Part shown: positions 11,629-63,471 of the stretch, piece by piece | Numbering within the stretch: position 1 is the first letter of the stretch | Layout of the letters: every line of letters starts with the position of its first letter | Assembly (NCBI GenBank): GCA_964627525.1 | Contig: CAZVIA010000005.1 | Span: 6,078 to 70,077 of the forward strand | Direction of reading: 5' to 3' | Origin: an uncultured Gammaproteobacteria bacterium | Lineage (GTDB): Bacteria; Patescibacteriota; Patescibacteriia; Magasanikbacterales; JBBTQS01 | DNA: 64,000 nucleotides | The notes under the pieces: generated by a model | The model's input: the letters and a program-made list of their open reading frames with translations, nothing else | The model's database searches: none | Told to the model about the DNA's origin: nothing | Program-made: the position numbers and the translations under genes

Positions 11629-13491
11629 CTAGTAACCAACCCAGAAGCGACCACTACAGCCGCTCGCGTTGTTATCCACCAAGGTGATGGACACCAACTG
11701 GTTGTCTACCCACACGACCCACTTCACTCCGGTCGAGTAACCGTCCGGGGAAGAATCGCACCAGTCCTTGTACGGCGTACCGTACTCAGTCTGATACTTC
11801 ACGTTGAAAAAGAACCATCCTCCATGCGGCAGCTTGAAGCCACCTTCTGGGGAAGTGAATGCTCCGCCATTGCCAGCATCCCAGGTGTACCACTCCTGCC
11901 AATCCCAGTGATAGTCACCAGGCGGCGGGTTGGTGCAACCAGTTGCAGACTTTCCGTCCAAGGTCAGGGTCCCGTTTTCACAGAACCAACCCTGGAGCCC
12001 AGCATGGCTCAAACCGAACGTGATGGGCCACTTGACCCAAACGTCCGCGAAATCGTCAATCTGCGGACCAACCACACATGTACCATCCTGACACACGAAC
12101 CCGTCCGAACAATCGTCGTCCGTGTTGCAGCAGAACGGCTTGGTGCTGAATTGGCAGAAACCAGTCATGACATTGCACATGTCCGTGGTACAGGGGTTGT
12201 TGTCCTCGCACACCTTGGAGGTGTAAAAGCACTGCCCGTTCACGCACGTGTCCACTGTACAAGCGTTGGCATCATTGCAGTTCATCAGATCACAAGGATC
12301 GTCCGAAACGCACTGACCCGTAGCCGAATCACAGGAGTAACCAGCACCGCAAACCTTGGGAGACTGATAGCAAGTACCATTTGCCGAGCACGAACCGATC
12401 GTGCAAGGATCTCCATCGTTGCAATGCGTGGGATTGTAGCACTCGCTGCAAAGCCCTTCCACGCAGTACGGTGTATTACCACCACACAACCCGCAAGAAC
12501 CACCACAACCATCAGTACCACACTCTTCTCCAGAACAGTTAGGGACGCAAGGCAGCGGCGAAGGAACAACACACTCGTTGTCCACGCACACCAACCCAGT
12601 GTCGCAATTGTAATCGTACAAGCAACACCCTAGCACCCCAGCGTAAGTGCACCCATTTACAGGGTTACACGTATCTGATGTACATGGGTTGTCATCATTG
12701 CAGTCAAGCCCACTTTCACCAGGTTGGCAAGCCATACCCTCGCAATGGTCACCCTCAGTGCATAGATCGTTATCAGTACACAAGGTTCCAGGCTCTGCTG
12801 CAACGTAACTGCAGCCATAGCCATTGACACAAGTATCCACAGTACAAACGTTGTTGTCAGCGCACGACTTCGGAGAGCCGCTTACGCACTGATCAGCGCT
12901 GCATGTGTCATTTTCGGTACAAGTATCTCCATCATCACATGCCTGACCATAACGCGGGACATTCTCACACAATCCATCGTCTTTGCAAACGTTGAATGTG
13001 CACTGATTTCCATCGTCACAATCAATGTGAAACTCGCACAGCGGATCCTGGCACGCGCCTTCAACGCAAACCATCTCGCCAACACAAGCACCACAAGAGC
13101 CACCGCAACTGTCTGTACCACATACCTTGTCCAGGCAATTCGGCATACAGCAAGTGTTTTCATAACACACCTCGCCGCCAGTACAGTCTGGGTTACTCTG
13201 GCACACGCCAACGGGTCCATCATCCGGAGTTCCCTCGTCAGGAGTGCCTTCATCTGGGCTACCCACATCCGGGTTTCCAGTGTCCAGCTTCCCAACCTCG
13301 GGTTGTCCAGTGTCCGGAGTTCCAACGTCCGGGGCACTCACGTCTGCTACCGGCTGAGGCATATCCTCTTCCGGCATATTCGGGGTGCACCCAGAGCAGG
13401 TAAAAATCGCACACACAACGGACACAAGCAGAGCTGTCAACAGAACTACCAACGTCCGCATGAACTTACGATCCCTTTGGGTAAAGATCAT
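11629..13491 (-). CDS. Secreted cysteine-rich repeat protein (high GC ~57%); over 15 repeats of C-x-D-x-N-x-C-T-x-D-x-C; Pro/Asp-rich linker; C-terminal beta-rich domain
   Basis: Signal peptide MIFTQRDRKFMRTLVVLLTALLVSVVC; strong RBS AGGGAG 6 nt before ATG; repeats such as CDDGNQCTFNVC, CNDDNPCTSDTC. Confidence 0.7.
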   Translation of the reverse strand: MIFTQRDRKFMRTLVVLLTALLVSVVCAIFTCSGCTPNMPEEDMPQPVADVSAPDVGTPDTGQPEVGKLDTGNPDVGSPDEGTPDEGTPDDGPVGVCQSNPDCTGGEVCYENTCCMPNCLDKVCGTDSCGGSCGACVGEMVCVEGACQDPLCEFHIDCDDGNQCTFNVCKDDGLCENVPRYGQACDDGDTCTENDTCSADQCVSGSPKSCADNNVCTVDTCVNGYGCSYVAAEPGTLCTDNDLCTEGDHCEGMACQPGESGLDCNDDNPCTSDTCNPVNGCTYAGVLGCCLYDYNCDTGLVCVDNECVVPSPLPCVPNCSGEECGTDGCGGSCGLCGGNTPYCVEGLCSECYNPTHCNDGDPCTIGSCSANGTCYQSPKVCGAGYSCDSATGQCVSDDPCDLMNCNDANACTVDTCVNGQCFYTSKVCEDNNPCTTDMCNVMTGFCQFSTKPFCCNTDDDCSDGFVCQDGTCVVGPQIDDFADVWVKWPITFGLSHAGLQGWFCENGTLTLDGKSATGCTNPPPGDYHWDWQEWYTWDAGNGGAFTSPEGGFKLPHGGWFFFNVKYQTEYGTPYKDWCDSSPDGYSTGVKWVVWVDNQLVSITLVDNNASGCSGRFWVGY

Positions 13492-13800
13492 AACAATCTC
13501 CCTGTTGGCCCCCTAGGGCCGGTAAAGCCCGTTAAGGCGTCGAATTCTGGTCTTCTTCAGTGGAACTGTGTTCCAAACGTCCGGCTCAAGAGCGTCACTA
13601 TTGAAGGAGGGCACAATAGCGAACCCGAACCGAACGATTACAACACAGTTCATCAAGCAATTTATGTGTTTTTTTACACAAATCCTGCTTGTTAAAGGAG
13701 AGGTTATACTAGCATAATTACATGTTTTTGTCAAGCTATTTTTGTATAAGCAAGTTTATTTACTTTTTTTTGTAAATTTACAACTTATTTAACCTCAAAA

Positions 13801-13886
13801 TTTCCCTAAAATTACAAAACCCATAGCAAAGTTAATTACTACGGGCTCTGTGTTGTTAAAAGCGCTTAAGTGGCGCTCCATTGAAA
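13801..13886 (-). terminator. Conserved two-hairpin plus U-tract 3' module (copy 1) just after the stop of 13887..14990
   Basis: Hairpins agcgc-ttaagtg-gcgct and cccgtag-N12-ctatggg, then U-run (minus-strand sense). Homologous to 15241..15324 with compensatory stem changes. Confidence 0.65.
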
Positions 13887-14990
13887 CTAGAAGTTGATAA
13901 TGCCTCGGAGTTGCACTGGCACTACACCATGCCACTTTCCAAGACTGTCACGAATCCATTCGCCACCAACAGCGACCTTAGCTCCATACCTGACCAGCGA
14001 CTTTTCGTCACCGTTCAAATACGAAACACCAGCAAGAAAACCTGGACCTCGACCATCCCAAGACAACACACCCCCAGTCGAAGCCTGAGTAATTGTGCCC
14101 TCCAAGGTCAACTGAATGGCTGGGTGCACTGTGAAATCCACCCCAAAGGCAGCGCCCCAGAGATGACTGAAGTCTGCATCTTCATCAGACCCAGGCAAAT
14201 CCATTGGCTGACCAATGGCAGTGTTCAGCTCTGCATGCATTCCCAAAACCTCATTGCGGAGATTCCAGTTGTACCGCAGTGCCAACTCACCAACCAAGTG
14301 GGTGGGAAGTTCGTCGCTGTTCAAACCAGGCCTGAACCGCAAACCATATTCCAGAGACAATCCATTCCAACGATGGTTAGCCTTACCAGTAAGTCCGCCA
14401 CCACTATCACGCCCTTCTGGACCATGCACATCGTTCTCCAAACGAGAAATCCGCTGCCCTTGAAAAAGCAACGACTGGTCTTGCGATATATCTCTGGTAT
14501 CTTGGATTCCCTGCGCCTTGCAAGTACGCCAGTCCAGCTCCAAGTACAAGTACTGAAACTCGGAAACCTGCCTTGCTACTTGCGGCTCGTTACAAGAAAA
14601 CCTATGGAAATCTTGGTCAGCGGAAAACCGATCAGTGAAACTCATCTGTGCAGCTGCACACCTACGACGAGCAAGTACATACTGTGGGTTGTCCTGATAC
14701 ATACCAGGATTCACTGACACAGTAGCACGAACCTTCAAACAAGGATGACTTGCAACTACAGCGAAAAGCCGATCGAAAAGCATGGTCGCCTGTGCGCGCG
14801 GTTGCACCATACACTCAAGAGTACCATCAAACCAGTTCTCCATTGGCGCCAAATCCACACCAGAGTATGGACCTATGATTTGTTTCACTGGCTCAATCGG
14901 CAACTTGTCAACGTAAGGCGGTGGCACCTGAGCATTTGCAAGACCCGCCACAAACATGATCATCACGAAACATGCGAGTTGCTTTGACAT
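13887..14990 (-). CDS. Secreted protein with outer-membrane beta-barrel-like features (signal peptide, alternating hydrophobic strands, C-terminal ...GIINF), high GC
   Basis: Start taken at MSKQLACFVMIMFVAGLANAQ (RBS AAGGGGAAAG); C-terminal Phe and beta-strand patterns such as YGAKVAVGGEW. Confidence 0.5.
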   Translation of the reverse strand: MSKQLACFVMIMFVAGLANAQVPPPYVDKLPIEPVKQIIGPYSGVDLAPMENWFDGTLECMVQPRAQATMLFDRLFAVVASHPCLKVRATVSVNPGMYQDNPQYVLARRRCAAAQMSFTDRFSADQDFHRFSCNEPQVARQVSEFQYLYLELDWRTCKAQGIQDTRDISQDQSLLFQGQRISRLENDVHGPEGRDSGGGLTGKANHRWNGLSLEYGLRFRPGLNSDELPTHLVGELALRYNWNLRNEVLGMHAELNTAIGQPMDLPGSDEDADFSHLWGAAFGVDFTVHPAIQLTLEGTITQASTGGVLSWDGRGPGFLAGVSYLNGDEKSLVRYGAKVAVGGEWIRDSLGKWHGVVPVQLRGIINF

Positions 14991-15240
14991 CTTTTCTTTC
15001 CCCTTTGCCCAGCGGGCATTTTTAGCGCCCACTGAGCGCTTTTTCCGAACAATTGCTTATCTGCTAGTTAATCAACCAACAGATTGCAACAACTAAAGCC
15101 ATTAGCATTAATTGTTGCAACCTCTTAGCTAAAATTAGCCCAAAAATCAATCTTTTTTCTGAAGACTTAGATTAGCACAAATAAACTAATCTGTCAAGTA
15201 CTTAATACAATATATTTTTATAATCTAGAAAAACCTAATT

Positions 15241-15324
15241 TTTGCCTAAAATTACAAAACCCGCAGTAAAGTTAATTACTACGGGTCCTGTGTTGTTGAG
15301 AGCGTTTTCACGCTCTACTAGAAA
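15241..15324 (-). terminator. Conserved two-hairpin plus U-tract 3' module (copy 2) after the stop of 15325..16137
   Basis: gagagcg-ttttca-cgctct and cccgtag-N12-ctgcggg; covariation relative to copy 1 keeps pairing. Confidence 0.65.
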
Positions 15325-16137
15325 CTAGAAGTACCGACCAGACCGAGCCGAAGTACGCGACGGCGGCGGATTACGACGACCTTGCGGAGGTCGCGGTGCT
15401 GGTCGCACGATCCGACGGCGCATCGTATTGACACGACGCGGCGAGGAACCCATCACGAATCCAGCATCTGCGGCAGGCAACGAACTCGGACGATCTTCAC
15501 GACGACTACGAGTAGCACGAGGCACTGAACGATCCTCACGGCGAGCAAATCGCTGCAACACCTTACGCTCCTGAGGAGCATAGTAAGAAGTCGCGGGAGC
15601 TGCAGCACAAGGCTTCAACCAATTCAACCGATGCACTGCCTCCAAGCAATACTCCATCGCAGCCTCACGCTGGGAATGTTCGTGCTCAACTCGATCCACA
15701 GCGTTCCACTTCTCCTCCAGGACGTGACGCTGTAGAGTTAGGTCACCATTGGTGTTTCCAACAGACCTTTGCAGACCTTCCAACTCCAAGATGTTCAGAG
15801 CGGAAGCCAACTTATACCAGGTCCAGGAACCCTTCTTGGTCTCGAACAACTGGTCCACGGCATCTCGCAAAACGAGCTTGTCCGGAACCTTGTTTCCATT
15901 CAAGTCCAACTTGGGAACCTCATTCACATGATGACGTGCCGTAGCACTGCCACCAAGGGCACATTTCGTTACTGCCGAAATGGCATCACGAACCGGCTGC
16001 ATTCGACGCAACTCCGCGGCAACAGCTCGCTTTTCCTCAGCCAACTTGGCTGCCTGACCCCCCTTTCGGTTATGGGCCAATGCCGTCATCGGAATCGCGA
16101 ACAGAACGATGAGAATGAGTGCGATACTTCGCTTCAT
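15325..16137 (-). CDS. Secreted protein with Arg/Pro-rich disordered C-terminal tail ending ...GRYF (high GC)
   Basis: Start at MKRSIALILIVLFAIPMTALA (RBS GGAGGGAAGG); signal peptide; tail RRRIVRPAPRPPQGRRNPPPSR. Confidence 0.5.
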   Translation of the reverse strand: MKRSIALILIVLFAIPMTALAHNRKGGQAAKLAEEKRAVAAELRRMQPVRDAISAVTKCALGGSATARHHVNEVPKLDLNGNKVPDKLVLRDAVDQLFETKKGSWTWYKLASALNILELEGLQRSVGNTNGDLTLQRHVLEEKWNAVDRVEHEHSQREAAMEYCLEAVHRLNWLKPCAAAPATSYYAPQERKVLQRFARREDRSVPRATRSRREDRPSSLPAADAGFVMGSSPRRVNTMRRRIVRPAPRPPQGRRNPPPSRTSARSGRYF

Positions 16138-16446
16138 CTTCCTTCCCTCCAAGGAGTTTTTAAACCCCTTTGCTGTGATTCTGAAAAGGGCATACGAGAA
16201 TCACCACGCGGTGACCACGACGGCACAACGGGTGATTCCCGTGCTGCCCCTTCCATGGCTAGTTTCCAAATGTGCCGTAATTAGGGCTTAATTTACGAGA
16301 AATTTAACCCTAATTACCACACACCCAGCAAGAAGATAACTTAGCACAAATCTTAAATTTTGTCAAGCCCTAAAATCACTTACTAAAAAAACAATAAAAA
16401 AAGGCACAAAAATTGCCTAAAATTAGATAAAATAATGAATTTTTAT

Positions 16447-20581: not shown

Positions 20582-21058
20582 GTGTTGTTACACAATGAAT
20601 TTATTTGTATGGCAAAGTTGGCAATAAACAAAAAAGCTAGATTTGATTATGAAATTTTAGACACGCTTGAGGCGGGTGTTATTTTGAATGGCCAAGAAGC
20701 TAAATCTGTAAGAGAAGGTGGATTGAGATTGGTTGAGTCTTTTGTAACTTTTAAGGGTGAGGAAGCTTTTATAACAAATGCACACATTAATCGTTACAGC
20801 AAAGCAAGTTCGCATTTGGAACATGACCCAACTCGCCCGCGAAAATTATTGTTGCATAAAAAACAAATTGCTCGGCTGATTGGAAAAAAATCTGTTGAGG
20901 GCTTGACAATTGTGCCTTTGTGTGCTTATATTAAAGGAGGAAAAATTAAAATAGAAATTGGAATTGCGCGCGGTAAAAAGAAACATGACAAGCGCGCGGT
21001 TTTGAAAAAACGCGACACTGATAGAGAAATCAGAAGAGCCCTTAAAAAAAACCTCTAA
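20582..21058 (+). CDS. smpB: SsrA-binding protein SmpB (probable true start at 20609, MAKLAINKK)
   Basis: NKKARFDYEILDTLEAGVILNGQEAKSVREGGLRLVESFV matches the SmpB core; immediately upstream of tmRNA. Confidence 0.85.
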   Translation: MLLHNEFICMAKLAINKKARFDYEILDTLEAGVILNGQEAKSVREGGLRLVESFVTFKGEEAFITNAHINRYSKASSHLEHDPTRPRKLLLHKKQIARLIGKKSVEGLTIVPLCAYIKGGKIKIEIGIARGKKKHDKRAVLKKRDTDREIRRALKKNL

Positions 21059-21060
21059 AA

Positions 21061-21133
21061 TTCGCATACTAATTTTGTACCGTTTGCCCGTAGAGGGTGG
21101 TCGAAGGCCATAGGTGCAAAATTAGTATGCGAA
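21061..21133 (+). terminator. Perfect 17-bp hairpin (TTCGCATACTAATTTTG / CAAAATTAGTATGCGAA) with 39-nt GC-rich loop plus TTTT, between smpB and ssrA
   Basis: Read directly; ends 7 nt before tmRNA GGGG. Confidence 0.55.
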
Positions 21134-21140
21134 TTTTACT

Positions 21141-21520
21141 GGGGATGACAGGCATCGATGGGAGGTTCGTGTAATTTTCTTGCGTATCAAGTTTGTATGT
21201 TCTTGTAAAAAATATTCAAACGATTACGTGCAAACGTTTTCAACAAAGTGAAAAACGCTTTCCGCGTTCCTTCACTTTCAATGGTAGCAGCTTAAAAGCA
21301 GCAACCCATCGCGTCCTGACGTCTCTAGGGGCAACGCGGTGTTATAATGAGACTTAGGTTTGCGAGACTTCTCCACTTGTAAACTGAAATAATTGGAGAT
21401 AGACATTACAAGACTTTGATTGTTTGTTGCTTGTAGTGCGACCCCTTCAAACAATCTACATACGTAGATAAGTTTATTGCATACTCACCAGACGCGGGTT
21501 CGAATCCCGCCATCTCCACA
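21141..21520 (+). ncRNA. ssrA: tmRNA (SsrA); predicted tag ANVFNKVKNAFRVPSLSMVAA
   Basis: 5' GGGGATGACAGGCATCGATGGGAGGTTCG and 3' GACGCGGGTTCGAATCCCGCCATCTCCA(CA) match the tmRNA tRNA-like-domain consensus; in-frame tag ends GTA GCA GCT TAA. Confidence 0.85.
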
Positions 21521-21602
21521 TTTTTAAATCACAAACGACCAGAGGTTTTCTTCTGGTCGTTCGTTGGTTGGAATGCTTGGTGTTCACACCTGTTGCCAAG
21601 CG

Positions 21603-28668: not shown

Positions 28669-30039
28669 TCAGGAAGGGCAACCAGTGTCGGGATCAGCGG
28701 GGGCTGAGTCACACGCGTCGCCGCATGCGTCTCCGTCCTCGTTCTCCTGACCATCGTTGGCGTTCAGCGGGCAGTTATCTTCTGCGTCGCCCACACCATC
28801 GTTGTCATCGTCACTGTCGCACTCGTCTCCGTAATTGTCACCGTCCGTGTCCACCTGATCCGGGTTGTCTACACCCGGGCAGTTGTCCATGGGCACGCCG
28901 TCGCCATCCATATCAGGCAGGCACACCCCGGTCGGGAGATCGTCACTCACGTAACATTCCTCATCCACGGCGCAAACCGCGGTGGGATCACAGCTCATTC
29001 CGCACACCGGATCTGAACCACACACGCCGGAACAGTTGGGAACGCACTCTACGCACGCGCCATCCTGACAGGACATGTCGCTGGCACCGAACTCACAAGG
29101 AGTCCCATCGTCTACCACAGAGGCAGCCGTGCACAAGCCAGTGGCCGGATCACAGACATCACCCATGGTACAGACCTCGTTGTCCTCACAGTCAACGGCC
29201 GTGCCAGAGCACGTGCCACCACTGCAGACATCTTCGGTCGTACACAAGTTGTCGTCGACGCAGGACTGACCGTCCTGGGCCGCGGAATCATTCTCACAGC
29301 TACCGTCGGTCTCGTCACACGAGTCCGCGGTGCAGGTATTCGAATCATCGCAATCCACTGCCGTACCGACCTGACAAGCTCCGTCCACACACACGTCACC
29401 GGTGGTGCACAGGTTGCCATCGTCGCAGGCGATATCCAAGTTGGTGCTCACGCAACCAGTCCCAACGACACACTCGTCACTGGTACAGACCTCTCCGTCA
29501 TCGCACGAAGCGTTGTTCGGAGCGTTGGCACAACCAGTCAAAGGATCACAGGAATCCACGGTGCAGGCGAAGGTGTCGTCACAGTCCGTGGCACTGGTAT
29601 CTGTCCCAGCGCACGAGCTGTCCGCACACACGTCAGTGGTGGTACACGCATTGCTGTCATCGCACGAAGCGACGTTAGCCGTGTTCACACACTGATAATT
29701 CGTACACACATCGTCGGTACAGACGTTGGTGTCGTCACACTGCGTATCCATGATACAGGCAATTGCTTCCTCACAACCTTCCGCATCGGAATCCTTGATG
29801 TACGCGCAGTATGCCTGCGTGTCACCGTCCTTCATGTAACAGAAGTATCCGGTCAAAGCGCACGGATCTGCGGGCTCTCCCGCGCAATCCGCGTCAACCG
29901 TACATTCGGTCAAACCACTCACCGTGGTTACGAACTGATCCAATGCCGGAGCATCGGTCATGTTCCCACAACCGTAGATGAGCGGAGAAACGATCAGTAC
30001 GGACAGAACGAACAGAGCGGTCTTTGACTGCTGCATCAT
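28669..30039 (-). CDS. Secreted Cys-rich repeat protein (C-x-D-x-N-x-C-T-x-D-x-C repeats) with C-terminal thrombospondin type-3 Ca-binding repeats; high GC
   Basis: Start at [24 protein letters not shown] (RBS GAGGAG); repeats [26 protein letters not shown]; TSP3: [33 protein letters not shown]. Confidence 0.7.
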
Positions 30040-30398
30040 GGGAAAAACTCCTCTTCCCACACCCAGTTTACACCAGGTGCTTTTGCTATTAGGCGTGGTT
30101 TTAAGATGATCTTGCCTAAGGATCATCCGAGCTGCGATCCGCAGTCTTTTTGCTTAAATTTTTTAAGCAAAAAAACCACAGATCAGAGTATTTTTAATAT
30201 ACACTCTCAAAAAGAGCAGGTCTTAAGTTAACATAATTATTATATTTTGTCAAGTCTTTTTTAGAAAAAAATTTTAAAACAAAAAAATTAGCTAAATTTA
30301 GCTAAAAAATAGCTGTCAAAAAGTTATCCACAAAAAAAATTTGACTAGAATTTTAAATTTTTTATAATTGGTTCTAGTCTTGCTCTGCAAGATAGAAA

Positions 30399-32974: not shown

Positions 32975-33454
32975 TTATTTCTTATTATTAACACGCTTTT
33001 TGCTTTTGCTTAAAAGCGCTTTTAATTCTTTTTGAAAACTTTTCACATCCTTAAATTGACGATACACACTCGCAAATCTTATGTACGCAACTTGATCAAA
33101 TTTTCTTAAATATTTCATTATGATTTCACCAATCTGCTTGCTGGTGATTTCACGATTTTTTTTCTTTTGAATTTCTTGTTCAATTTTGTGGATCAAAGTT
33201 TTAAATTTATCTTGGGTGTATGGACGTTTTTCTAAAGATTTAAAAATACCTCGTGATAATTTTTCTCTATTATAAGTTTCCCGTTGGCCATTATTTTTAA
33301 CCACAGTTATATCTAGCAATTCCATTTCTTCAGTTGTTGAAAATCTAAAATGGCATTTTTCACATTCACGACGGCGACGCACACTTAAACCATCTTGAGC
33401 CACGCGCGAATCCACCACTTTTGTTTCTTTATTTTTACAGCTAGGACAATGCAT
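32975..33454 (-). CDS. nrdR: Transcriptional repressor NrdR
   Basis: MHCPSCKNKETKVVDSR...RRRECEKC zinc ribbon plus ATP-cone. Confidence 0.85.
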   Translation of the reverse strand: MHCPSCKNKETKVVDSRVAQDGLSVRRRRECEKCHFRFSTTEEMELLDITVVKNNGQRETYNREKLSRGIFKSLEKRPYTQDKFKTLIHKIEQEIQKKKNREITSKQIGEIIMKYLRKFDQVAYIRFASVYRQFKDVKSFQKELKALLSKSKKRVNNKK

Positions 33455-33562
33455 AGTGTTGGTATTATAGCACGATTGACTTGGCAGTATTAAAAATTTT
33501 TGCTATTATCATTTCTCACTATGCAATGGCGCATAGTGTTAACCAGGGGGAGGTTGGCTCAA

Positions 33563-34804
33563 ATGAGTGAGCAGACCAGAACCATAGCCAGATTGACTGT
33601 TGCCAGTATTCACATGATAAAAATTCCTATCTATGTTTTTCGCATAAAAGGCAAAGATGGAGCACAAAGAAGTAACATCAGATGGGTCAATGTTGGTGGA
33701 AAACTTGCAGGCATTGCATCGCGCTCTGAAGAGTACCCTTACAACATCACTGTTGTGGTGATGATAGATAGTGAGGGCAGAAAATACTTTTTAAGTTCAG
33801 ATTCTTTTAGGGTGTATGTGTTCAAAGCCAAAGATGTGCAAGTGACAACTTCAGGTAAATTTGCAAAGACAGTACTTAAGACACACTTAATAACTGGAAG
33901 GTATGGTGCTTATCATAACAATGCATGTAATTGTTCGTATCGTGATGTGCCACATCGTAAAGAGTGTTACACAACAGAATATCTTGATGCAAAAAGTGCT
34001 CTTCGAGAAAAAACTCTGTTTGACCAGCGATTTGTCCGAGTTATGTGGTCTCATGATTATCATGGCTTGAAACGCATCCATTTTGAAAAAGAATATACTT
34101 TTGAAGAGTTGTGCGCTCTTAAGCCTGGTGATGTGTTGTTTGAAGTAAAAGATCATCCATTCAAAAAAGAGACTGGAAAATTCAGTCTTCCTTGCAGAGT
34201 TGAAACTACTCCAAGTTGGATGAGGTACAAACGAACTTTTGGTTGGATCACACAAGTCAAGAAAATGACTGTGTTCACAAATGGTATTGTGCATTTTCCT
34301 TTAGAAAGGCCTTTTGGTGCAATTGGCTGGAAGCAGTGGTCTTTGATTAAATTCACACAACGCATTCATGCCGAAAACTGGCATGAGATGCTTAAAGCGA
34401 TTGAAGGTAAATATTTTGAAGGTGTAAACACATCTACAAAACTCAATCGAGCAATTCGAAATTTGCACTTTATTGGAGAAAGCCAGGATCGTATCAGAAA
34501 AATTCAGGGCGAGTGCTTCAGAGGTGGTACTTTTGATGAATGTCATGGTGTAGAAGTAGGTATTGGTGAACGACTTTTGTTCATTGGTCAAAAAAATAAT
34601 GTGCCCGTATATGTGATTGACTCCCCTAGCTATGGGACTGCACTATATGTTTTCACTGATGAAACAGTTGCGCGTAATTTTGCAAACAAACGTATCAGCG
34701 CAACTAAGGCCCAGGAATCTGCATCTGCTCGTGTGATTCATGTTGGAAAATGGGAAGCTCGAGCTAGTCAAGCTATTGCGTCTGCTAGCGTAGCAAGTTC
34801 GTAA
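33563..34804 (+). CDS. Hypothetical protein (no recognisable domain); self-contained plus-strand gene with strong RBS GGGGGAGG
   Basis: Start at MSEQTRT (the ORF track begins upstream at 33500); GC ~42%; own terminator at 34841-34872. Confidence 0.55.
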   Translation: MSEQTRTIARLTVASIHMIKIPIYVFRIKGKDGAQRSNIRWVNVGGKLAGIASRSEEYPYNITVVVMIDSEGRKYFLSSDSFRVYVFKAKDVQVTTSGKFAKTVLKTHLITGRYGAYHNNACNCSYRDVPHRKECYTTEYLDAKSALREKTLFDQRFVRVMWSHDYHGLKRIHFEKEYTFEELCALKPGDVLFEVKDHPFKKETGKFSLPCRVETTPSWMRYKRTFGWITQVKKMTVFTNGIVHFPLERPFGAIGWKQWSLIKFTQRIHAENWHEMLKAIEGKYFEGVNTSTKLNRAIRNLHFIGESQDRIRKIQGECFRGGTFDECHGVEVGIGERLLFIGQKNNVPVYVIDSPSYGTALYVFTDETVARNFANKRISATKAQESASARVIHVGKWEARASQAIASASVASS

Positions 34805-34840
34805 TTTAACAGAGCTATTCCCTATTAACCCTTAACAAGG

Positions 34841-34872
34841 CCGCTTAGTTAACTACTAAGTGGTTTTGTAAT
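34841..34872 (+). terminator. Rho-independent terminator (ccgcttagt-taact-actaagtgg plus TTTTG)
   Basis: Read directly. Confidence 0.55.
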
Positions 34873-35049
34873 TTATATAATTTTAAAATTTAAAAAATAC
34901 CCGTAACCTGATTCGTTGAACCAAGTTACGGGCAAAGGGGTGATTTGGTAGAGGATTTTTCTAGGGGAGCCCTCCACCAGTCCGTGACGAGGTCTACCAT
35001 CATGGCTCTCTCATAATTATTATGTCGTAATTTAATTTTTTTTGCAATA

Positions 35050-35095
35050 TTAAAAAGCCCTGTCGCTTTGAGGTGACAGGGCTTTAAACTTTTCT
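35050..35095. terminator. Bidirectional terminator (GCCCTGTC-gctttgaggt-GACAGGGC, A-run before and T-run after) for ftsZ and the convergent plus-strand gene
   Basis: Stem 35057-35064 / 35075-35082. Confidence 0.6.
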
Positions 35096-35130
35096 GAATT
35101 TAAAACTTTTTTATAACTTTTTTTATAAAC

Positions 35131-36459
35131 TTATCCACCCATTTTTCTTCTAATAAATGCTGGGATCTCTAACTCTTCATCAGGTTCAACATTTGCATCT
35201 GTTGCTGAATCTGGTTTTCTTAGTTTTGGTTTGATAATATTTTTCTGTGGCTGTGAATGTGGTTGTGGTTGTTGACGCTCTGTTGTTTCTTCTTTTGTTT
35301 TATCTGTTGTGCCACCAAAAATTTTTCTTTTAAAACTAGGAGGTGAATCTTTTTTCTCTTCTTCTTGTTGTCCTGTAGGTGCTGTAGCTACATTTGCAAA
35401 ATTAGTTGGACTTGGCCCAAACAAATTTTGATTCATAGACATTACAGTACTACGCTCCTGACCTCGTGGATCAATTCTTTTTGGCATACGATCACCAAAA
35501 CCAGTTGCCACAACAGTAATTTTTACTTCATCTTTCATGTCTTCATCAATCACAGCACCAAAAATAACTTTTGCATCTTCATCAGTGCTTTCTGTAATAA
35601 CTTGAGCAGCGTCATTTACTTCTTGCATTGTCATATCACTACCTCCACAAATTGTGAACAACAAACCTTTAGCTCCATCAACTGAAACTTCAAGCAAAGG
35701 AGACGCGATTGCAGATTTTGCAGCATCCACTGCACGATTTTCACCAGTTGCTCTTCCAATTCCCATGAGTGCACTTCCTGTATCATGCATGATTGCTTTT
35801 ACATCTGCGAAATCAACATTAATTAAACCTGGAGTTGTAATTAATTCTGAAATTCCTTGAACACCTTGGCGCAAAACATCATCAACAATTTTAAATGAAT
35901 CAACTAAAGATGTTTTTTTGTCTATGATTTGCAAAACTCTATCATTAGGAATACAAATTATTGTATCAACACTTCCTTCCATTTCTTCATAAGCAGAGTC
36001 AGCAACTTCTCTTCTTTGTGCTCCTTCAAAAGTAAATGGACGAGTTACAACAGCAACTGTTAAAGCACCTAAATCACGGGCAATCTTTGCAATTTCAGGA
36101 CCAGCTCCTGAGCCAGTTCCACCACCCAAACCACACGTTATAAAAACCATGTCAGTGCCTTTTAGCATGTCGCGAATTTCATTTTGAGATTCTTCTGCTG
36201 ATGCACGCCCAACATTTGGATCCATACCTGCACCAAGTCCGCGTGTTACAGAATTACCAATGTGTAATTTTTGTTGAGCACTACTATGATGCAATGCTTG
36301 AACATCAGTGTTAATTGCAACAAACTCAACACCACGAATTTTTGCAAGAATCATTCGGTTGATTGCTGAATTACCACCACCCCCTATACCTACTACTTTT
36401 ATTTTAGCAAATGTTTCAATTGCTGGTTTTACTTCTGGCATATTTTTTTGGTTGAACAC
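35131..36459 (-). CDS. ftsZ: Cell division protein FtsZ
   Basis: [12 protein letters not shown] and [12 protein letters not shown] tubulin signature. Confidence 0.9.
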
Positions 36460-36563
36460 ATTTTTTGTTCAACAAAATTATTTTTGAATACATTTAGTGT
36501 TTCTATATATAAGTTTACAAGAGGATTAAAAAAAACACAATAGCTGTGGAAATAAACACAAAG

Positions 36564-36592
36564 TTGACAAATTTTGCCAAAAATGATATAAA
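36564..36592 (+). promoter_or_regulatory. Consensus sigma-70 promoter TTGACA-N17-TATAAA for the 36630 gene
   Basis: Hexamers at 36564-36569 and 36587-36592; 17-nt spacer counted. Confidence 0.6.
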
Positions 36593-36629
36593 AAGATGTC
36601 GCAAACAACCGCGGCAAAGGGGAGGGACT

Positions 36630-37382
36630 ATGCCTCATATAAGCGAAGACCAAATTGCTAGGTTGCGTGAGTTGGATTCAAAGTTTGAGCATGGGTTGGG
36701 AGATAACTTTGAAGCATGGCTAGATTCCATGGATCAGCTACAAGCTTTGGACATAGACGATCCAAGCCAAACTTCTGAAGCACCAAGTGATATTCGTGAA
36801 AAACAAGCTCAAGTGCTTTGGGATAAGGGTTTTGGTCGTGAGCAAGGTTATGCTGAATTCAAGGGTTACCTTGCAACCATTCCTCCACAACCAGAACGTC
36901 CAACTGATCTCCCAGACTACTTGGACAAGCTAATCCTCGTAGATGCACGAATTGCTCGTACTCAAGATAAGGATGGTGAGTACCAGTTCGGAGGACTTGT
37001 CAAAGTCTGTGAACTGCTTAGAGTCAAATTCACTGGAAACAACTCCATATTTGAACCATTCAATCCAGAACAGGTCAAAAAACAAGACGTGTATTGGATG
37101 TGGTGCCAAGATGGTAAACGTAATCTAGGTAAAACTGTCCAAACCTGCCGTAAAGAGTTCGCTGAAAATGAAATCGGACTTGATGCAATGGAAGGTCTAG
37201 CATTGTTTGCTCAACACAGAAAGATTCCAGAAGATCACTACATGGACCTGCCAAGTTCGGTCCATTGTGGCAATCGCAAGTGCTGCGCGAACCTCGACTT
37301 GTGGGACGACGTTCCGGAGTTGGACTTGGACTGGGATGGCGATGCGGATTCCAGGTTTGGTTCTGCGTCGCGTGGGGAGTAA
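36630..37382 (+). CDS. Hypothetical acidic protein (no recognisable domain); plus-strand gene between ftsZ and ftsA; RBS AAGGGGAGGG
   Basis: Start MPHISEDQ 7 nt after the RBS; GC ~45%; flanked by its own promoter and terminator. Confidence 0.55.
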   Translation: MPHISEDQIARLRELDSKFEHGLGDNFEAWLDSMDQLQALDIDDPSQTSEAPSDIREKQAQVLWDKGFGREQGYAEFKGYLATIPPQPERPTDLPDYLDKLILVDARIARTQDKDGEYQFGGLVKVCELLRVKFTGNNSIFEPFNPEQVKKQDVYWMWCQDGKRNLGKTVQTCRKEFAENEIGLDAMEGLALFAQHRKIPEDHYMDLPSSVHCGNRKCCANLDLWDDVPELDLDWDGDADSRFGSASRGE

Positions 37383-37431
37383 TTTCCCTCTGCCCTTTTA
37401 ACCTAGTCACTCTTTGAAACTTTTCCCTTGT

Positions 37432-37470
37432 CCCTCTTAGTTTAACAACTGGGAGGGATTTGTGTTTTTT
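37432..37470 (+). terminator. Terminator (CCCTC-N14-GGGAGGG plus T-run) for the 36630 gene
   Basis: Read directly. Confidence 0.5.
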
Positions 37471-37473
37471 GTG

Positions 37474-37512
37474 AAAAAAGGGCGAAATTTGCTTTGCAAA
37501 TTTCGCCCAATA
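37474..37512 (-). terminator. Strong terminator for ftsA: perfect 13-bp hairpin GGGCGAAATTTGC-tttg-GCAAATTTCGCCC followed by U6 on the minus transcript
   Basis: Stem 37480-37492 / 37497-37509; AAAAAA at 37474-37479. Confidence 0.65.
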
Positions 37513-37556
37513 AAACACAAACTAAATACCCCAAACCCTTTATTCCAACTCCACTT

Positions 37557-38822
37557 CTAAGGCACCAAACTCTTAAACCACTTTCTCACTTGTTTACTCA
37601 CCTTATCTACGGTTTTAAATTTTGAAATTACATCTCCCCAACCTTGACCATCACCAGTACTTAATTTAAATCCCCATTGCACCAAACCAATCGCAGTTGC
37701 AAAAGATAAATCATTTACTTTTTCTGTTACACTTGAAATTTCTAAAGGATAACCCAATGAAGCTGGTAACTGCAAAACATCTTTACTAACTTCAACTATC
37801 CCAGGCATTTTTGCTCCTCCACCAGTAAACACAACTCCTGCTGGCAAAATCCTACTACGCCCAATTTTTTTAAATTCATCATCAACTCTTTCTAAAATTT
37901 CTTCAATACGCGCCTGAATAATTTCTGCAACGTATTTTTTTGCAACTTCTTCTGATTCATCAGCACCCAGATCTGCCAAGTCAATTGTATCGCGCTTATG
38001 TATTCCTTTTACTTGTGCTGTTCCATATTCAATTTTTACTCTTTCTGCAACATCAATTGATGTACGCAAACCAATAGCAATATCATTTGTAATATGCTCT
38101 GAACCAATTGGCAAAACAGCTGTGTGCACCACATCTCCTTCTTCATAAACAGCCATACTTGTTGTTGAACCACCAAGATTGATCACAGCAACACCTAATT
38201 CTTTTTGCCTACGAGTTACAACAGCTTCTGCAGTTGCCAAAATAGACAAAACCAAATCATCAATATCAACTCCAGTTCTATAAACACTTCTTGTTAAATT
38301 TTTTATTTGAGAAGAAACACCTTGGATAATTTGTGAATCAACCTCTAAACGCACACCTGTCATTCCAACCGGATCTTTAATTCCTGCCTGACCATCTACT
38401 GTAAAACTTTTTGGTAAAACATGAAGTATCTCATAATTAATCGGTGTAGCAACTGTTCGCGCTGCGTCAATTGCTCTAGCAATATCATCCCCTGTTATTT
38501 CACCATCTGATCTTGAAACAGCAATCACACCTTTACTTTCTTGAGACAAAATATGACTTCCAGAAATTCCAACCCAAACATGTTCAATTGGCGCACCAAT
38601 CATTCTTTCTGCACGCTCAAGACAAGCACTAATTGATGAAACAGTGTCCTCAATACTTGTGACTATTCCTTTATGCACTCCTTCAGAAGGAACTTCAGCA
38701 GCACCAACAATGTGCATTGTTTCTGTTTCAGCACGCACCATTGGCTGACCAACAGCAATTCTCACTGCAGTTGATCCAATGTCTAGCCCTGTTATTAATT
38801 CTTCTCTAATTTTCGCTCGCAT
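37557..38822 (-). CDS. ftsA: Cell division protein FtsA
   Basis: Actin-like ATPase; LDIGSTAVRIAVG phosphate-1 motif. Confidence 0.85.
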   Translation of the reverse strand: MRAKIREELITGLDIGSTAVRIAVGQPMVRAETETMHIVGAAEVPSEGVHKGIVTSIEDTVSSISACLERAERMIGAPIEHVWVGISGSHILSQESKGVIAVSRSDGEITGDDIARAIDAARTVATPINYEILHVLPKSFTVDGQAGIKDPVGMTGVRLEVDSQIIQGVSSQIKNLTRSVYRTGVDIDDLVLSILATAEAVVTRRQKELGVAVINLGGSTTSMAVYEEGDVVHTAVLPIGSEHITNDIAIGLRTSIDVAERVKIEYGTAQVKGIHKRDTIDLADLGADESEEVAKKYVAEIIQARIEEILERVDDEFKKIGRSRILPAGVVFTGGGAKMPGIVEVSKDVLQLPASLGYPLEISSVTEKVNDLSFATAIGLVQWGFKLSTGDGQGWGDVISKFKTVDKVSKQVRKWFKSLVP

Positions 38823-56562: not shown

Positions 56563-56757
56563 CTCTCCCTCCCTTTTGCCAGCCCCCTGTGACTAGCTAA
56601 GTTATAATAGCAAGTTTGGGGAGTTTGTCAAGTTTGAGTTGCTCTGGCGCACCCCAATACCAAGCATTGGAGTTTGACGTTTCGCTTAGTCAAGCACCCC
56701 CTTGTGGTTAAGTTTAAAATTATAAATTGTATAATGTGGTAGGAAAATATGTATGTC

Positions 56758-56889
56758 GCCTAACGTTCCAGAATATGCGATGTTTGCCCGTGGTAAAATT
56801 TGCGACCGGCGGGAGCTTACCACGGGCAAATATGGGTGCAGCGAGGAGGAGGTACGACGACGAACGGAACCGCATATTCTGTGTTGTAC
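56758..56889. repeat. attC-like element A: GCCTAAC-gtt-CCAGAATATGCG ... CGCATATTCTG-t-GTTGTAC; inner 14-bp stem TTTGCCCGTGGTAA/TTACCACGGGCAAA; AATATGGGTG motif
   Basis: Read directly; 11-bp outer inverted repeat. Confidence 0.7.
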
Positions 56890-59605: not shown

Positions 59606-59679
59606 AATAAAAGAAAATATAAACTGATTTATAAATGTTAGGCGGAAACCCTCAAATTATAATTCTACACGACGATTGA

Positions 59680-59803
59680 ATATAACGTCTAGGTATAAGC
59701 GATGTTGCACGGGTGTATAATACGCTGAAAGCGTACACCCGTGCAATATGGGTGAAGTGAAAGAGTGAAAGGACTGAACGAAACCGCTTATACCTTGTTA
59801 AGT
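59680..59803. repeat. attC-like element C: AATATAAC-gtct-AGGTATAAGCG ... CGCTTATACCT-t-GTTAAGT; inner 11-bp stem GCACGGGTGTA/TACACCCGTGC; AATATGGGTG motif
   Basis: Read directly. Confidence 0.7.
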
Positions 59804-59814
59804 GATGTAAATTT

Positions 59815-60333
59815 TTATTTTGTATTGTTTCCGATTATCAAAGTGATGTTGCCATCTTTCTCTTCTCTTATACTTTGGCCCTTAATTGGACCTGAAAAAA
59901 CTCCTTGAGCTATGCTGGTGAAATCATATCCATTTTGCTCTAGATAGTCTTTGATCTCATAACCGAATTGGATGGCCTCAGCGTCTCCCATGACCGTTGT
60001 TATTCCTATTTTTTTATCTCTGAAATTTTCAAGTTGTTGTTTTAATCCTTCGGTAAGATGACGCTGAGGTGTTCCTATGTTGACTTGCCCAGCCGTAATG
60101 CCGCCTTGTTGATTGTTACTAGTCACATTAAATATATTGTCTGTCATATTTGTGCTTGTTAGGTAATAAACTGCTACTCCACCGACAATGACAACTGTCA
60201 GTGGAATAAAGAAATATTTGTTAATTGGTTTGCTCCAAAATTTGGGGTTTTTCGGCTGGGCAATTTTATTGATTTCGCCAGCGGTTGTTCCACCTTTTTG
60301 GTTGTTACTTGTTACGTTGATTATTTTTTTCAT
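59815..60333 (-). CDS. Hypothetical membrane-anchored protein with two INVTSNNQ(K/Q)GG(T/I)TAG repeats
   Basis: Internal duplication and one TM; cassette gene. Confidence 0.4.
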   Translation of the reverse strand: MKKIINVTSNNQKGGTTAGEINKIAQPKNPKFWSKPINKYFFIPLTVVIVGGVAVYYLTSTNMTDNIFNVTSNNQQGGITAGQVNIGTPQRHLTEGLKQQLENFRDKKIGITTVMGDAEAIQFGYEIKDYLEQNGYDFTSIAQGVFSGPIKGQSIREEKDGNITLIIGNNTK

Positions 60334-60346
60334 AAAAATTTATTTC

Positions 60347-60440
60347 ACTTAACGTTTCAGTATATGCGATGTTTTGCGAAGTATGAGCAAAATATGGGAG
60401 AGCGAAGTGCAACGAGCGAACCGCATATACTGTGTTAGGC
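60347..60440. repeat. attC-like element D: ACTTAAC-gttt-CAGTATATGCG ... CGCATATACTG-t-GTTAGGC; AAATATGGGAG motif
   Basis: Both ends match RYYYAAC / GTTRRRY exactly; 11-bp perfect outer stem. Confidence 0.75.
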
Positions 60441-60613: not shown

Positions 60614-63127
60614 TTAAATCTTAATGTTTAATTTTTTTAGTACCATTTCAGAAATGGAACTTAGCATGTTTTTTGATTTATTAATTAATGCTTTTGCTTC
60701 TTCTCTTTGATTTATTGCTTCTTCTGCAATTTTTCTTTGATCAGCTATATTTGGTTTAACTATTTTTATCTTAAAAAAGTCTTTAAGTCGTAAATTTTTA
60801 ATACCAGTTGTCTGATTCTGTATATAGTCCATATAACCTGACTTATAAAGTGTTTGTAAATAGACAAAGACATATTCTGGTAGCAATGTGTTTTCTTTTA
60901 TTTTCATTTTTTGCAAAAAGTTACTAAAGACAACGGGTTTATCAAATGGTAAATCCTCAATTATTGCCACTCTCCCAACAGGTTGAATTGGACTTCCTCC
61001 TGATTTTTCTACTAAAATTTCTCCTTTTTTTAATGCAAGTTTTTCTGCTTTATTTTTTTTAATATAACGCTGGGCTACATCTGAAAAATCAAGATTGAAG
61101 TCGTTATGAAAATTTGTATTTCTAACTACATAGCAAAGTTCATAATCTGAATTTGGTTCAAAATTAATTGGATCCTCGCCCCATTCTCCCGCAACAGAGC
61201 TTTCGACTATGTCTTCAAGAATGATATTTGATTGGCTGTTATTCTCGATGACATTCTGTAAGTTTTTAAAAAATGGTCTATAAAAGTAAGGATCAAAACG
61301 ATCTTGTAGTTCATTATTATCAATAAAAAATGTTTCAGGCTCTTTTTTCTTAGTTACATTTTTTTTATTTAAGTATGTATCGAGAATATCTATCAAGTCA
61401 TTTTTTGGATCACGTTTTCCAGTTGCTTCATAGCCAATATGATCAGCTATTGCCATAAAAACTTTGTATTTTTTTTCTTTTTCTTGCTTATCCTTTTTTC
61501 TTAAAAATAAGAGGGATGACTTTACTGCTGCTCCATAATGAACGAATGTAAATTGTGGTAGACTAATTATTGCTTCTATTTGGCAATGATCCATTATAAA
61601 ATCACGCACATATTGAAATGTTGAGTTCATGAGTATTCCGTCAGGCAAAACAATTGCCATTCTTCCAGTGCCGTATTTTAGAAAATCAATGCAACGCTCA
61701 ATAAATAAAATTTCGGTTTTTTGATTGTCTCGGCATTTTTTCCCATTTTGTCCAAAATTAAATTTTTCAATATAAGGGTGTTCACTTCTTTTTACATTCG
61801 CCCCAAATGGTGGATTTGTTACAATTACATCAAATTTATTTATTTCAAAGCCACGATTTTTACCATTCATTTTTTCAATATCTTCTAACGCATCAAAGCC
61901 AATTACATTTGTGTGTCCGTCATCATGAATAATCATGTTCATTTTAGCAACGCGTGCAATTGAATCATTTATTTCAATGCCAAAAAGATTGTTTTGAGCA
62001 AAATCATGCCAAAAGCGATATTTTTCTGTTTCATCATCCTTGTAGTATTCCTCAGCTTGACTTCGTACTTCATCAAGAGCGTGCAAAAGAAAACCACCAG
62101 AACCACAGGCAGGATCAAGCACGAGATCATCATTTTTAATCTCCATCATTTTAACTGCGAAGCTAACGATTTCACGCGGAGTAAAAAATTGCCCGCTTTT
62201 ACCTTTGAAAAAATCTTCCATAAATTGCTCAAAAGCTACGCCTTTTGTATCAAGATCAGTTTTACTAAGGGAAACGCTTTGCAAATGTCCAACTACTGTA
62301 TACAGTTCTTCTGGGTCAATTTTTAGACTTTCCTTAAAAACTTCTGGATCTTTTTGTTTTGCCTCTTGATAAATAGCGTCTAATCTTTTGTATACACTTT
62401 CAGCCTTTTCATGTGTTTTGATTTGAAAATCGTAGAATTCACCATTTTTTCTTCCACGTTTTTCATCACGAATTTTTACAAAAATGATTTTACAAAGCTC
62501 ATCAAAAGCTACGGTTGGATTTCTTTTTCCGCCAGCCCATAAAGTGTTTTGAGATTTTTCAAGAGTTCGTTTAAGTTCTAATTTATCGAGTGTCTTTAAG
62601 TCCCAATCGGGATCGCCTTTTTTAAAACGATATTCTTCAATTTTTCCATAAGAAATTGGAATATCGGTAATAGTGGCTTTTTCTGGTTCTTTATCATTCC
62701 ATTCCGCCGTTTCCATTGCTCTGCGAGTATTGCCAGCAACGCAAATTGCAAACGGAGCATGAAGTACGCGAGCGTTGCCGATTGCTTGTTTGGTAGCTTG
62801 TTCAAATTCTGCATCCGATACTCCGTCTTTTTTGCACTCAACGACGATGTAGGGTTTCTTTTTTGCGTCGTCTTCATAAATAACAATATCAGCAAAAAAA
62901 CGAGGCACGCGAGCAGGCATTTCCGTTTCGAGTTCTAAACGCTTTGCAGGATAGTGATATTTTTCAAGCAAATCAAAATAGTATTCAGCACGGACTTTTT
63001 CCTCTGGATCATTCAAATTTTCTTTGTGTCCTGACGGCAGGTATTCTATTTTTGCACCATCATTAAAAACACGAAAATATCCTTTTTTCTCGCCGTCATT
63101 TAATATTTTTTCCAGAGTATTTATCAT
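60614..63127 (-). CDS. Single-chain Type IIG/IIL-like restriction-modification enzyme: N-terminal PD-(D/E)xK nuclease, gamma-class N6-adenine MTase (DPACGSGGFL, NPPFG), C-terminal TRD-like region
   Basis: ADIVIYEDD...VVECKK nuclease motif; FTPREIVSFAVKMMEIKNDDLVLDPACGSGGFLLHA and VTNPPFGANV methylase motifs. Confidence 0.7.
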   Translation of the reverse strand: MINTLEKILNDGEKKGYFRVFNDGAKIEYLPSGHKENLNDPEEKVRAEYYFDLLEKYHYPAKRLELETEMPARVPRFFADIVIYEDDAKKKPYIVVECKKDGVSDAEFEQATKQAIGNARVLHAPFAICVAGNTRRAMETAEWNDKEPEKATITDIPISYGKIEEYRFKKGDPDWDLKTLDKLELKRTLEKSQNTLWAGGKRNPTVAFDELCKIIFVKIRDEKRGRKNGEFYDFQIKTHEKAESVYKRLDAIYQEAKQKDPEVFKESLKIDPEELYTVVGHLQSVSLSKTDLDTKGVAFEQFMEDFFKGKSGQFFTPREIVSFAVKMMEIKNDDLVLDPACGSGGFLLHALDEVRSQAEEYYKDDETEKYRFWHDFAQNNLFGIEINDSIARVAKMNMIIHDDGHTNVIGFDALEDIEKMNGKNRGFEINKFDVIVTNPPFGANVKRSEHPYIEKFNFGQNGKKCRDNQKTEILFIERCIDFLKYGTGRMAIVLPDGILMNSTFQYVRDFIMDHCQIEAIISLPQFTFVHYGAAVKSSLLFLRKKDKQEKEKKYKVFMAIADHIGYEATGKRDPKNDLIDILDTYLNKKNVTKKKEPETFFIDNNELQDRFDPYFYRPFFKNLQNVIENNSQSNIILEDIVESSVAGEWGEDPINFEPNSDYELCYVVRNTNFHNDFNLDFSDVAQRYIKKNKAEKLALKKGEILVEKSGGSPIQPVGRVAIIEDLPFDKPVVFSNFLQKMKIKENTLLPEYVFVYLQTLYKSGYMDYIQNQTTGIKNLRLKDFFKIKIVKPNIADQRKIAEEAINQREEAKALINKSKNMLSSISEMVLKKLNIKI

Positions 63128-63328
63128 AATTTTAAACCTTAAAAGTAAAAGTTATTTGTATTATATAAGTATTTCTCTTGTTTATTCAATTTATAAATAA
63201 ATCGTTTTCGGAGCGATAGCGGAGAAAACACCTTTTACCCCCCCCTCTTTAAAAATTAAAAAAATCAAATTCCTTATTTCTTAAAGCCCACCAAAAACAT
63301 TTTAAAAACAAATTTTTCAAAAATATGT

Positions 63329-63471
63329 CGTCTAACGTTCCCGTGTATGAGAAGTTTCTCCGACTTCCTTATTCTCTATGATAGAGGAGGCGAAATTTGG
63401 GTGAAAGAAAAAGTGCAACCGCTAAAAATTATTAACGCACTTTTTCTTGAACCTCATACACGCTGTTATGT
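63329..63471. repeat. attC-like element E: GTCTAAC-gtt-CCCGTGTATGAG ... CCTCATACACGC-t-GTTATGT; AAATTTGGGTG motif
   Basis: Outer arms 10/12 complementary; longer variable centre. Confidence 0.6.

Follow-up and report, generated by a model that had tools for sequence, protein, structure and literature searches.

Diversity-generating retroelements (DGRs) rewrite ligand-binding surfaces: reverse transcription of the RNA of a template repeat (TR) introduces errors at adenines only, and the resulting cDNA takes the place of a variable region (VR). Here we analyse a 64-kb stretch of DNA (contig CAZVIA010000005.1, hereafter the window) from a low-GC groundwater member of Patescibacteria (candidate phyla radiation, CPR), in which two plus-strand genes, A and B, interrupt a conserved block that includes the division genes ftsA and ftsZ, and in which gene B belongs to a family of DGR variable proteins. 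The closest described counterparts of gene B are the ‘clade 2' DGR targets of CPR/Patescibacteria (Roux et al. 2021, PMC8144416), with which it shares a cellular chromosomal location in a groundwater Patescibacteria host, a small product without signal peptide, transmembrane segment or known domain, a VR at the extreme C-terminus, and homologues that lie beside a TR, Avd and reverse transcriptase (RT) with adenine-specific differences between TR and VR. It differs from them in that no TR or RT accompanies the window copy in ~74 kb, and in that this copy is invariant, occupies the ftsA-ftsZ spacer and is one of several dispersed copies that share a promoter and a terminator.

Remote DGR targets are also known: the DGR of Treponema denticola has several (Wu et al. 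2018, PMC5758913). As in that system, a single TR acts on VRs at different loci among the homologues of gene B (here L001 and L003), whereas no TR able to serve the window copy was found. Mtd of Bordetella phage BPP-1 and TvpA of Treponema likewise carry their VR at the C-terminus, on a scaffold able to absorb massive variation, and the variable positions of gene B lie in the same manner between conserved Trp/Gly scaffold residues, with weak structural neighbours of the C-type-lectin-like kind. Gene B, however, has no detectable sequence similarity to these proteins and is not phage-borne, and a shared fold is a candidate suggested by modelling. In its architecture the gene B unit also resembles phage ‘morons', units of promoter, gene and terminator that have entered another operon between two of its genes. 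It too is an autonomous unit of atypical composition between two genes of a conserved block, but the host block is chromosomal rather than part of a prophage, and no phage homologues were found.

A family of variable proteins beside DGRs

Gene B (36630..37382, plus strand) encodes 250 residues. Its 24 homologues, none of which has a name or a Pfam domain, include P0003 (67% identity, E 4e-92) and P0004 (57%, E 5e-86). At locus L001 the gene for P0003 is followed by a TR, by bAvd on the opposite strand and by an RVT_1 reverse transcriptase. The last 130 nt of the P0003 gene (1411-1540) are repeated at 1880-2009, and 11 of the 13 differences between this VR and its TR fall at TR adenines. A metagenome scan with the family alignment identified a second, independent locus, L099, with the VR at 4430-4563, the TR at 4880-5013, Avd on the minus strand and an RT; here 18 of 19 differences are at TR adenines. 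Adenine-specific TR/VR differences beside Avd and RT are the defining DGR signature (PMC5758913, PMC8144416). The gene for P0004, on a 128-kb scaffold (L003), has a hypothetical gene on one side and TGT on the other, and no RT lies within 6 kb of it; even so, of the mismatches that separate its VR from the L001 TR, 17 are at adenines and 1 is elsewhere. Since the mismatches lie nearly all at adenines of the L001 TR, L003 is a remote target of that TR.

The pattern of conservation within the family matches this setting. Over the last ~43 residues, highly variable positions (entropy 2.2–3.3 bits) alternate with a conserved scaffold, and the scaffold residues R216, A220, W225, P229, L231, W235 and GSASR244-248 are all kept in gene B. 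Gene B carries its VR homologue at the 3' end (37254..37380, plus strand), and this stretch can be aligned with both the TRs and the VRs of L001 and L099. It has 58% GC and only 16% adenine, against 32% adenine in the rest of the gene, a depletion that past adenine mutagenesis would produce.

An AlphaFold (AF2) model built on the family alignment (pLDDT 87, pTM 0.80) predicts three N-terminal helices and a conserved alpha/beta core. Foldseek against the PDB returned weak neighbours only (best E 0.07), several of which (rhodocetin, BDCA2, CD72 and MCL) are C-type-lectin-like, so that the VR scaffold modelled here is probably of that type as well. The C-type-lectin fold does carry DGR variable regions (PMC8144416), and the weak neighbours are compatible with this without proving it. 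Profile searches of PDB sequences gave nothing, and Foldseek against viral structures gave nothing significant. Gene B has neither a signal peptide nor a membrane segment, and thereby fits the CPR DGR targets, which are typically without transmembrane or known domains (PMC8144416). The only recurring family signal is a sub-threshold match to DUF5701 in 6 of the 24 family members, which no paper mentions. The product of gene B would be a non-membrane, ligand-binding protein of fixed specificity. What had appeared to be a hypothetical protein in an odd place thus becomes interpretable as a DGR-type variable protein left without its retroelement. The advance is a modest one: DGRs themselves are known, and what gene B adds is a new, hitherto unannotated family of CPR DGR targets in an unusual place.

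A dispersed promoter-to-terminator unit

The homology of gene B to its paralogues extends beyond the coding sequence. Alignment of the window with locus L007 by blastn (78% identity over 916 bp) runs from exactly the −35 box (36564) into the T-run of the terminator (37472), which defines a plus-strand cassette of promoter, ribosome-binding site (RBS), coding sequence, 3' element and terminator at 36564..37472. Its promoter (36564..36592) has TTGACA at 36564-36569, a 17-nt spacer and TATAAA at 36587-36592 preceded by TG, and the arrangement TTGACA-N17-TGnTATAAA is kept in five paralogous loci. The RBS, AAAGGGGAGGG, is read from the sequence at 36617-36627. After the stop codon follows a pyrimidine-rich element (37383..37429) that is conserved in the window, L007, L001, L003 and L009, and then a terminator hairpin found by hairpin scan (37430-37459) whose T-run reaches 37472; ~65 nt of pyrimidine-rich 3' flank and the hairpin are likewise conserved in paralogous loci. 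All copies of the cassette have a GC content at third codon positions (GC3) of ~0.41–0.45, whereas their neighbours are at ~0.2.

These copies occupy unrelated places. At L007 the gene for P0002 lies between a DNA_alkylation gene and a DUF5667/sigma-factor pair, and in the contexts examined homologues of gene B adjoin TGT/UvrD, ParE, PemK, a sigma factor and rpiB/ileS, with none near ftsZ or ftsA. Loci L001, L003 and L007 were recovered from samples that also hold the window organism. Samples with this organism are ENA ERZ23499038, ERZ23499057, ERZ23499059 and ERZ23499079, and JGI 3300009374, 3300009375 and 3300009405. The tetranucleotide correlation of the three loci with the window is 0.94–0.98 (0.97 between the two halves of the window, and 0.87 for a Magasanikbacteria locus of equal GC), and no single-copy gene is duplicated between them and the window. 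The three loci could be parts of the window's own genome.

Some of these loci show possible signs of decay. In the closest paralogue of gene B, P0002 at L007, a 1-nt insertion in the VR (~4190-4210) truncates the protein at ...LSWHLG; this copy is a pseudogenised cassette, with conservation persisting through the 3' remainder and the terminator. The RT frame is broken in L001 (2384-2896), where a stop after 170 residues is followed by a hairpin, and in L099 (5408-6449), where the frame changes near 5664-5971; the DGRs may be decaying, or the breaks may reflect assembly errors or recoding. Homologues of gene B adjoin toxin-antitoxin genes in two contexts, L001/L002 (ParE) and L009/L010 (PemK), and the window has an RHH-ParE pair at ~26.97–27.48 kb, a position calculated from the L004 genes at 3407-3921, ~10 kb from gene B, which fits such accessory-gene neighbourhoods.

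A bolder proposal, which we hold to be improbable, is that the ~0.9-kb unit is a mobile ‘variable-protein cassette'. The copies between ftsA and ftsZ and at L007, L001 and L003 would then lie in one genome as a library serviced in trans by one or two DGRs, with the 3' element and hairpin as the target-recognition signal. Such a cassette would need a mechanism of spread that has not yet been described, because DGR retrohoming only replaces the VR; if the proposal is true, the copy inserted between ftsA and ftsZ would also separate the transcription of ftsZ from that of ftsA. The dispersed cassettes, whether serviced, remote or frameshifted, provide a natural series for the expansion and decay of a DGR target repertoire in Patescibacteria.

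Insertion into the ftsA-ftsZ-nrdR block

An earlier note on the window, made from its sequence, had held that ftsA and ftsZ are normally adjacent and are separated here by a self-contained gene, suggested to be an insertion. Both points are borne out by comparison with related genomes, which were found by an FtsZ scan with one genome per species. The nearest are Patescibacteria at 53–62% identity, and the set includes Falkow-, Kerfeld-, Buchanan- and Terrybacteria and metagenome-assembled genomes (MAGs) of the Parcubacteria group. In 11 related Patescibacteria loci the order p264-p423-ybeY-ftsA-ftsZ-(nrdR/pyk) is co-linear on one strand. The gap between ftsA and ftsZ is 10–220 bp in 10 of the 11, the eleventh holding a same-strand gene of 233 residues, and nrdR, where detected, comes 27–570 bp after ftsZ. 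The window has the minus-strand order lexA, pyk, a small membrane protein, nrdR, ftsZ, ftsA and ybeY, interrupted by the plus-strand genes A and B; its ftsA-ftsZ gap is 1.1 kb and contains a gene on the opposite strand, so that the pair is not immediately adjacent. Excision of 36564-37472 leaves a spacer of ~206 bp, inside the range of the relatives.

The earlier note had named the presence of the intervening genes across the clade as the observation that would speak for an ancestral arrangement; no homologue of gene A or gene B occurs in the division block of any of the 11 relatives. Because the block is conserved and both genes are absent from it in these relatives, A and B are, as judged from comparative sequence, lineage-specific additions to an ancestral ybeY-ftsA-ftsZ-nrdR block. 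The gene B unit in particular is delimited from promoter to terminator and recurs at unrelated loci. The nearest available genomes share only ~60% FtsZ identity with the window organism. In the scenario that we propose, two independent, self-contained transcription units on the opposite strand would have interrupted the ancestral division block, after which ftsA would keep its own terminator and ftsZ would need a promoter of its own. Even the most conserved pair of division genes thus tolerates, in a reduced CPR genome, an autonomous insert on the opposite strand.

The suggestion that these are small mobile genes of a phage or plasmid kind did not survive the searches. Phage and plasmid collections contained no match to either gene and IMG/VR contained none to gene B; no convincing direct or inverted repeats flank A or B as insertion scars, and no recombinase open reading frame (ORF) adjoins them. 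Neither gene therefore shows the features of a mobile element, namely terminal repeats or a target-site duplication, a recombinase, or phage or plasmid homologues.

Frozen copy or remote target

The 64-kb window and the adjoining 10 kb upstream (~74 kb in all) contain no repeat of the VR (37240-37385), no RT and no Avd. The two known TRs are not cognate to the window VR: that of L001 has 18 non-adenine mismatches with it, for which reason it was rejected as the donor, and that of L099 has 21. At non-adenine positions the VRs of the window and of L007 have features in common that set them apart from the L001 TR, which implies a second, unseen TR lineage. For the window VR stretch 37287-37337 the pattern of a cognate TR would be RMRAAMMWMRAMTTGTGGRAMRAMRWWCCGRARTTGRAMWWRRAMTGGRAW. 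A degenerate ‘base-or-A' scan of metagenome contigs for such a TR gave zero matches; since it missed even the window's own VR, the organism is absent from that metagenome collection. At the level of assemblies, the window VR is identical in three independent ones (the window, L004 and L006) and in all members of its 90% cluster, and most homologue clusters without a local DGR are likewise static. Because there is no TR or RT in ~74 kb, no match to either known TR and no difference among the assemblies, the most probable state of the window copy is that of an orphan or frozen target; at most it would be a remote one that is seldom serviced. Taken jointly, that gene B was inserted here, that it is a dispersed cassette, that it belongs to a Patescibacteria-specific family of DGR variable proteins and that it persists as an orphan or frozen target is the account we favour, with somewhat more confidence than doubt.

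Several observations weigh against this account. The cognate TR and RT, the defining parts of a DGR, were not found for the window copy in the ~74 kb of genome covered. The RT ORFs are interrupted in both DGR loci, so even these DGRs may be decaying. The only case of VR-only differences between samples is that of P0003 and P0123, in which all 13 differences fall in residues 208–236; the P0123 VR, however, equals that of the paralogue P0004, which makes gene conversion or an assembly chimera possible. The family assignment itself is drawn from sequence comparison.

The strongest competitor keeps gene B within the DGR family and makes it an active remote target, with a DGR elsewhere in the genome rewriting 37254-37380 in trans and one variant being dominant. 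Remote targeting does occur in the family, as the L003 VR and the L001 TR attest, and gene B is intact: no scaffold residue has been lost, and the VR still has its GC-rich 3' end and a hairpin downstream. The unseen second TR lineage also speaks for this explanation, as do the shared samples, tetranucleotide correlation and lack of duplicated single-copy genes that connect L001, L003 and L007 to the window genome. Set against this are a VR that is identical in every assembly from several samples, the lack of a TR in ~74 kb, the 18 non-adenine mismatches of the known L001 TR, the frameshift in the closest paralogue and the L001 RT ORF that stops after 170 residues. We consider active remote targeting of this kind unlikely. 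If membership of the DGR family is taken as given, a rough estimate places the frozen or orphan copy a little above an even chance and a remote target of an unseen DGR a little below it.

Explanations without a retroelement fare worse. If A and B were generic small mobile or accessory genes, the variability at the C-terminus of gene B would be ordinary fast evolution, and the lack of a database family match, the varied genomic contexts and the atypical GC3 count in its favour. This does not account for repeats of 130–134 nt beside Avd and RT in which, at two loci, 29 of 32 differences fall at repeat adenines. For gene B the generic explanation is refuted, and for the two genes together we give it very little credence; it is still the best available description of gene A. 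A role for A, B or both as lineage-specific division factors, for example as modulators of FtsZ or FtsA placed for co-regulation, draws on position, both genes flanking ftsZ and the gene B promoter being divergent from the ftsZ upstream region. Yet homologues of A lie near TrmB, recA and other genes, those of B lie in the various contexts given above, none of either is near ftsZ or ftsA, and the relatives divide without A and B, which makes such a role barely credible. The frozen or orphan DGR target thus remains the reading that we prefer for gene B.

Gene A is a second, unrelated family

Gene A (33563..34804, plus strand), supported by its ORF, RBS and homologues, encodes 413 residues. A word-indexed search had found only gene A itself, which made it appear an ORFan; a full HMMER scan of 1.8 billion cluster representatives overturned this view with 95 relatives at E≤1e-3 and 51 at E≤1e-10, all of which match the C-terminal ~170 residues of A at their own C-termini. 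The indexed search, when repeated with the gene A alignment, still missed the family. The alignment includes whole-length relatives, with P246, R249, P250, W273, G335, D353, P355, H393 and W397 invariant and with the C-terminal motifs FPxxRP, NW..L.A..G, G.CF, VVDSPxYGxALYVF and H.G.W..R; it was too diverse for a pattern scan. A Pfam scan of ten relatives found no domain in any. The family is seen mostly in metagenomes, and the only named source is one relative annotated as a hypothetical protein of a Candidatus Magasanikbacteria MAG. Three homologue contexts are all different and all chromosomal: with TrmB and holA, after a protein of 1382 residues, and near recA and efp.

The AF2 model of gene A (pLDDT 81) has a beta-rich N-terminal half, a C-terminal half that is helical plus alpha/beta, and a disordered Cys/His-rich insert at residues 96–140. 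Foldseek against the PDB gave no significant neighbour (best E 0.69), and no repeats, RT or defence-system signals are associated with the gene. The product of gene A is cytoplasmic and belongs to an unannotated family whose C-terminal domain of ~170 residues is conserved; it is unrelated to gene B and adds a confidently modelled protein family without a known fold neighbour.

The earlier note had placed A, B and a third gene, at 4104-5096, in one class of higher-GC genes without recognisable domains. No such class emerges, since all-against-all BLASTP finds no sequence similarity among the three, and 4104-5096 encodes a multi-pass membrane protein inside a GT4 glycosyltransferase/Wzy_C cluster. 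The three share orientation, autonomy and raised GC3, and neither ancestry nor function. The GC range of 42–47% given for them holds for gene B (45.9%) and 4104-5096 (43.9%), while gene A is at 39.7%, in a window of 36.9%; GC3 separates them better, at 0.31 for A, 0.41 for B and 0.48 for 4104-5096, against 0.16–0.25 for core genes. As to domains, neither A nor B matched a family above threshold in Pfam, NCBIfam, PHROG or PADLOC, and scans of 4104-5096 against the same four collections gave nothing above threshold; gene B, by its membership of the DGR variable-protein family, is no longer without recognisable affiliation. Neither A nor B is a chance ORF. At the composition of the window ~6.8% of codons would be stops, and by simple arithmetic the chance of an open run is ~2e-8 for 250 codons and ~2e-13 for 413.

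Layout of the locus

The two plus-strand units at 33563-34804 and 36630-37382 are present in the sequence as first described, with their promoter, RBSs and terminators; the assignment of two of the hairpins has changed. Upstream, nrdR (32975..33454, minus strand) is the flanking core gene, identified by its ORF, by Zn_ribbon_NrdR and ATP-cone matches on an identical public gene and by its position next to ftsZ in relatives. Gene A is preceded by a plus-strand promoter-like site, TTGGCA-17-TATTAT with TG (33481..33509), which agrees at 10 of 12 positions and is a consensus match only, and by the RBS GGGGGAGG (33546-33553, read from the sequence). The bidirectional terminator said to bound gene A resolves into two elements: gene A has its own hairpin, a putative plus-strand terminator from the hairpin scan (34835..34869), and the truly bidirectional-looking one, with a 14-bp stem between an A-run and a T-run (35054..35085), belongs to ftsZ. 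The ftsZ gene lies on the minus strand at 35131..36441. Its ORF extends to a GTG at 36459, but the most likely start is the ATG at 36441 (MPEVKP...), since relatives begin M-x-EVKP and the public gene call is of 436 residues. Beyond gene B, the perfect 13-bp stem that had been thought to shield ftsA is indeed present (37480..37508); its T-run is on the minus strand, and it is therefore ftsA's own terminator. The ftsA gene (37557..38822, minus strand), the other flanking core gene, is supported by its ORF, a public gene and synteny in relatives.

Between the gene A hairpin and the ftsZ terminator there is a possible small minus-strand transcription unit (34890-35047). Its signals are a promoter-like TTGCAA-17-CATAAT (35047-35019) and a 17-bp terminator of its own (34934-34898). 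The ~120 nt are predicted to form a stable fold (−44.4 kcal/mol, z = −3.9), and a peptide of 25 residues, MMVDLVTDWWRAPLEKSSTKSPLCP, could be encoded as well. Rfam gave chance-level matches only on the spacer between gene A and ftsZ, and the unit is seen only in contigs of this organism.

Other features of the window

An intergenic motif of 46 nt (core AACGTTTCAGTATATGCGATGTTT) occurs in five copies, at 56744-56789, 59666-59711, 60333-60378, 63316-63361 and 63942-63987. The region also carries an MmeI-like restriction-modification gene (60614-63127), an HNH nuclease, a methyltransferase and an AAA-like ATPase, and the motif may be a shared promoter or operator of this accessory island.

Far stronger compositional outliers than A or B are found at 11629-16152 and 28669-30126, where genes of 50–57% GC and GC3 0.49–0.64 encode Cys/Asp-rich repeat proteins. 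They share coding repeats of 37–45 nt, and have weak or faint Dicty_CTDC matches and a TSP_3 match on the public calls of two of the genes. A 91-nt repeat (13777-13867 and 15217-15307; 78% identical) stands upstream of two of them. Finally, a 33-nt inverted repeat, 88% complementary and with a 17-nt loop, is located at 21056-21138, directly upstream of the tmRNA (21141-21521).

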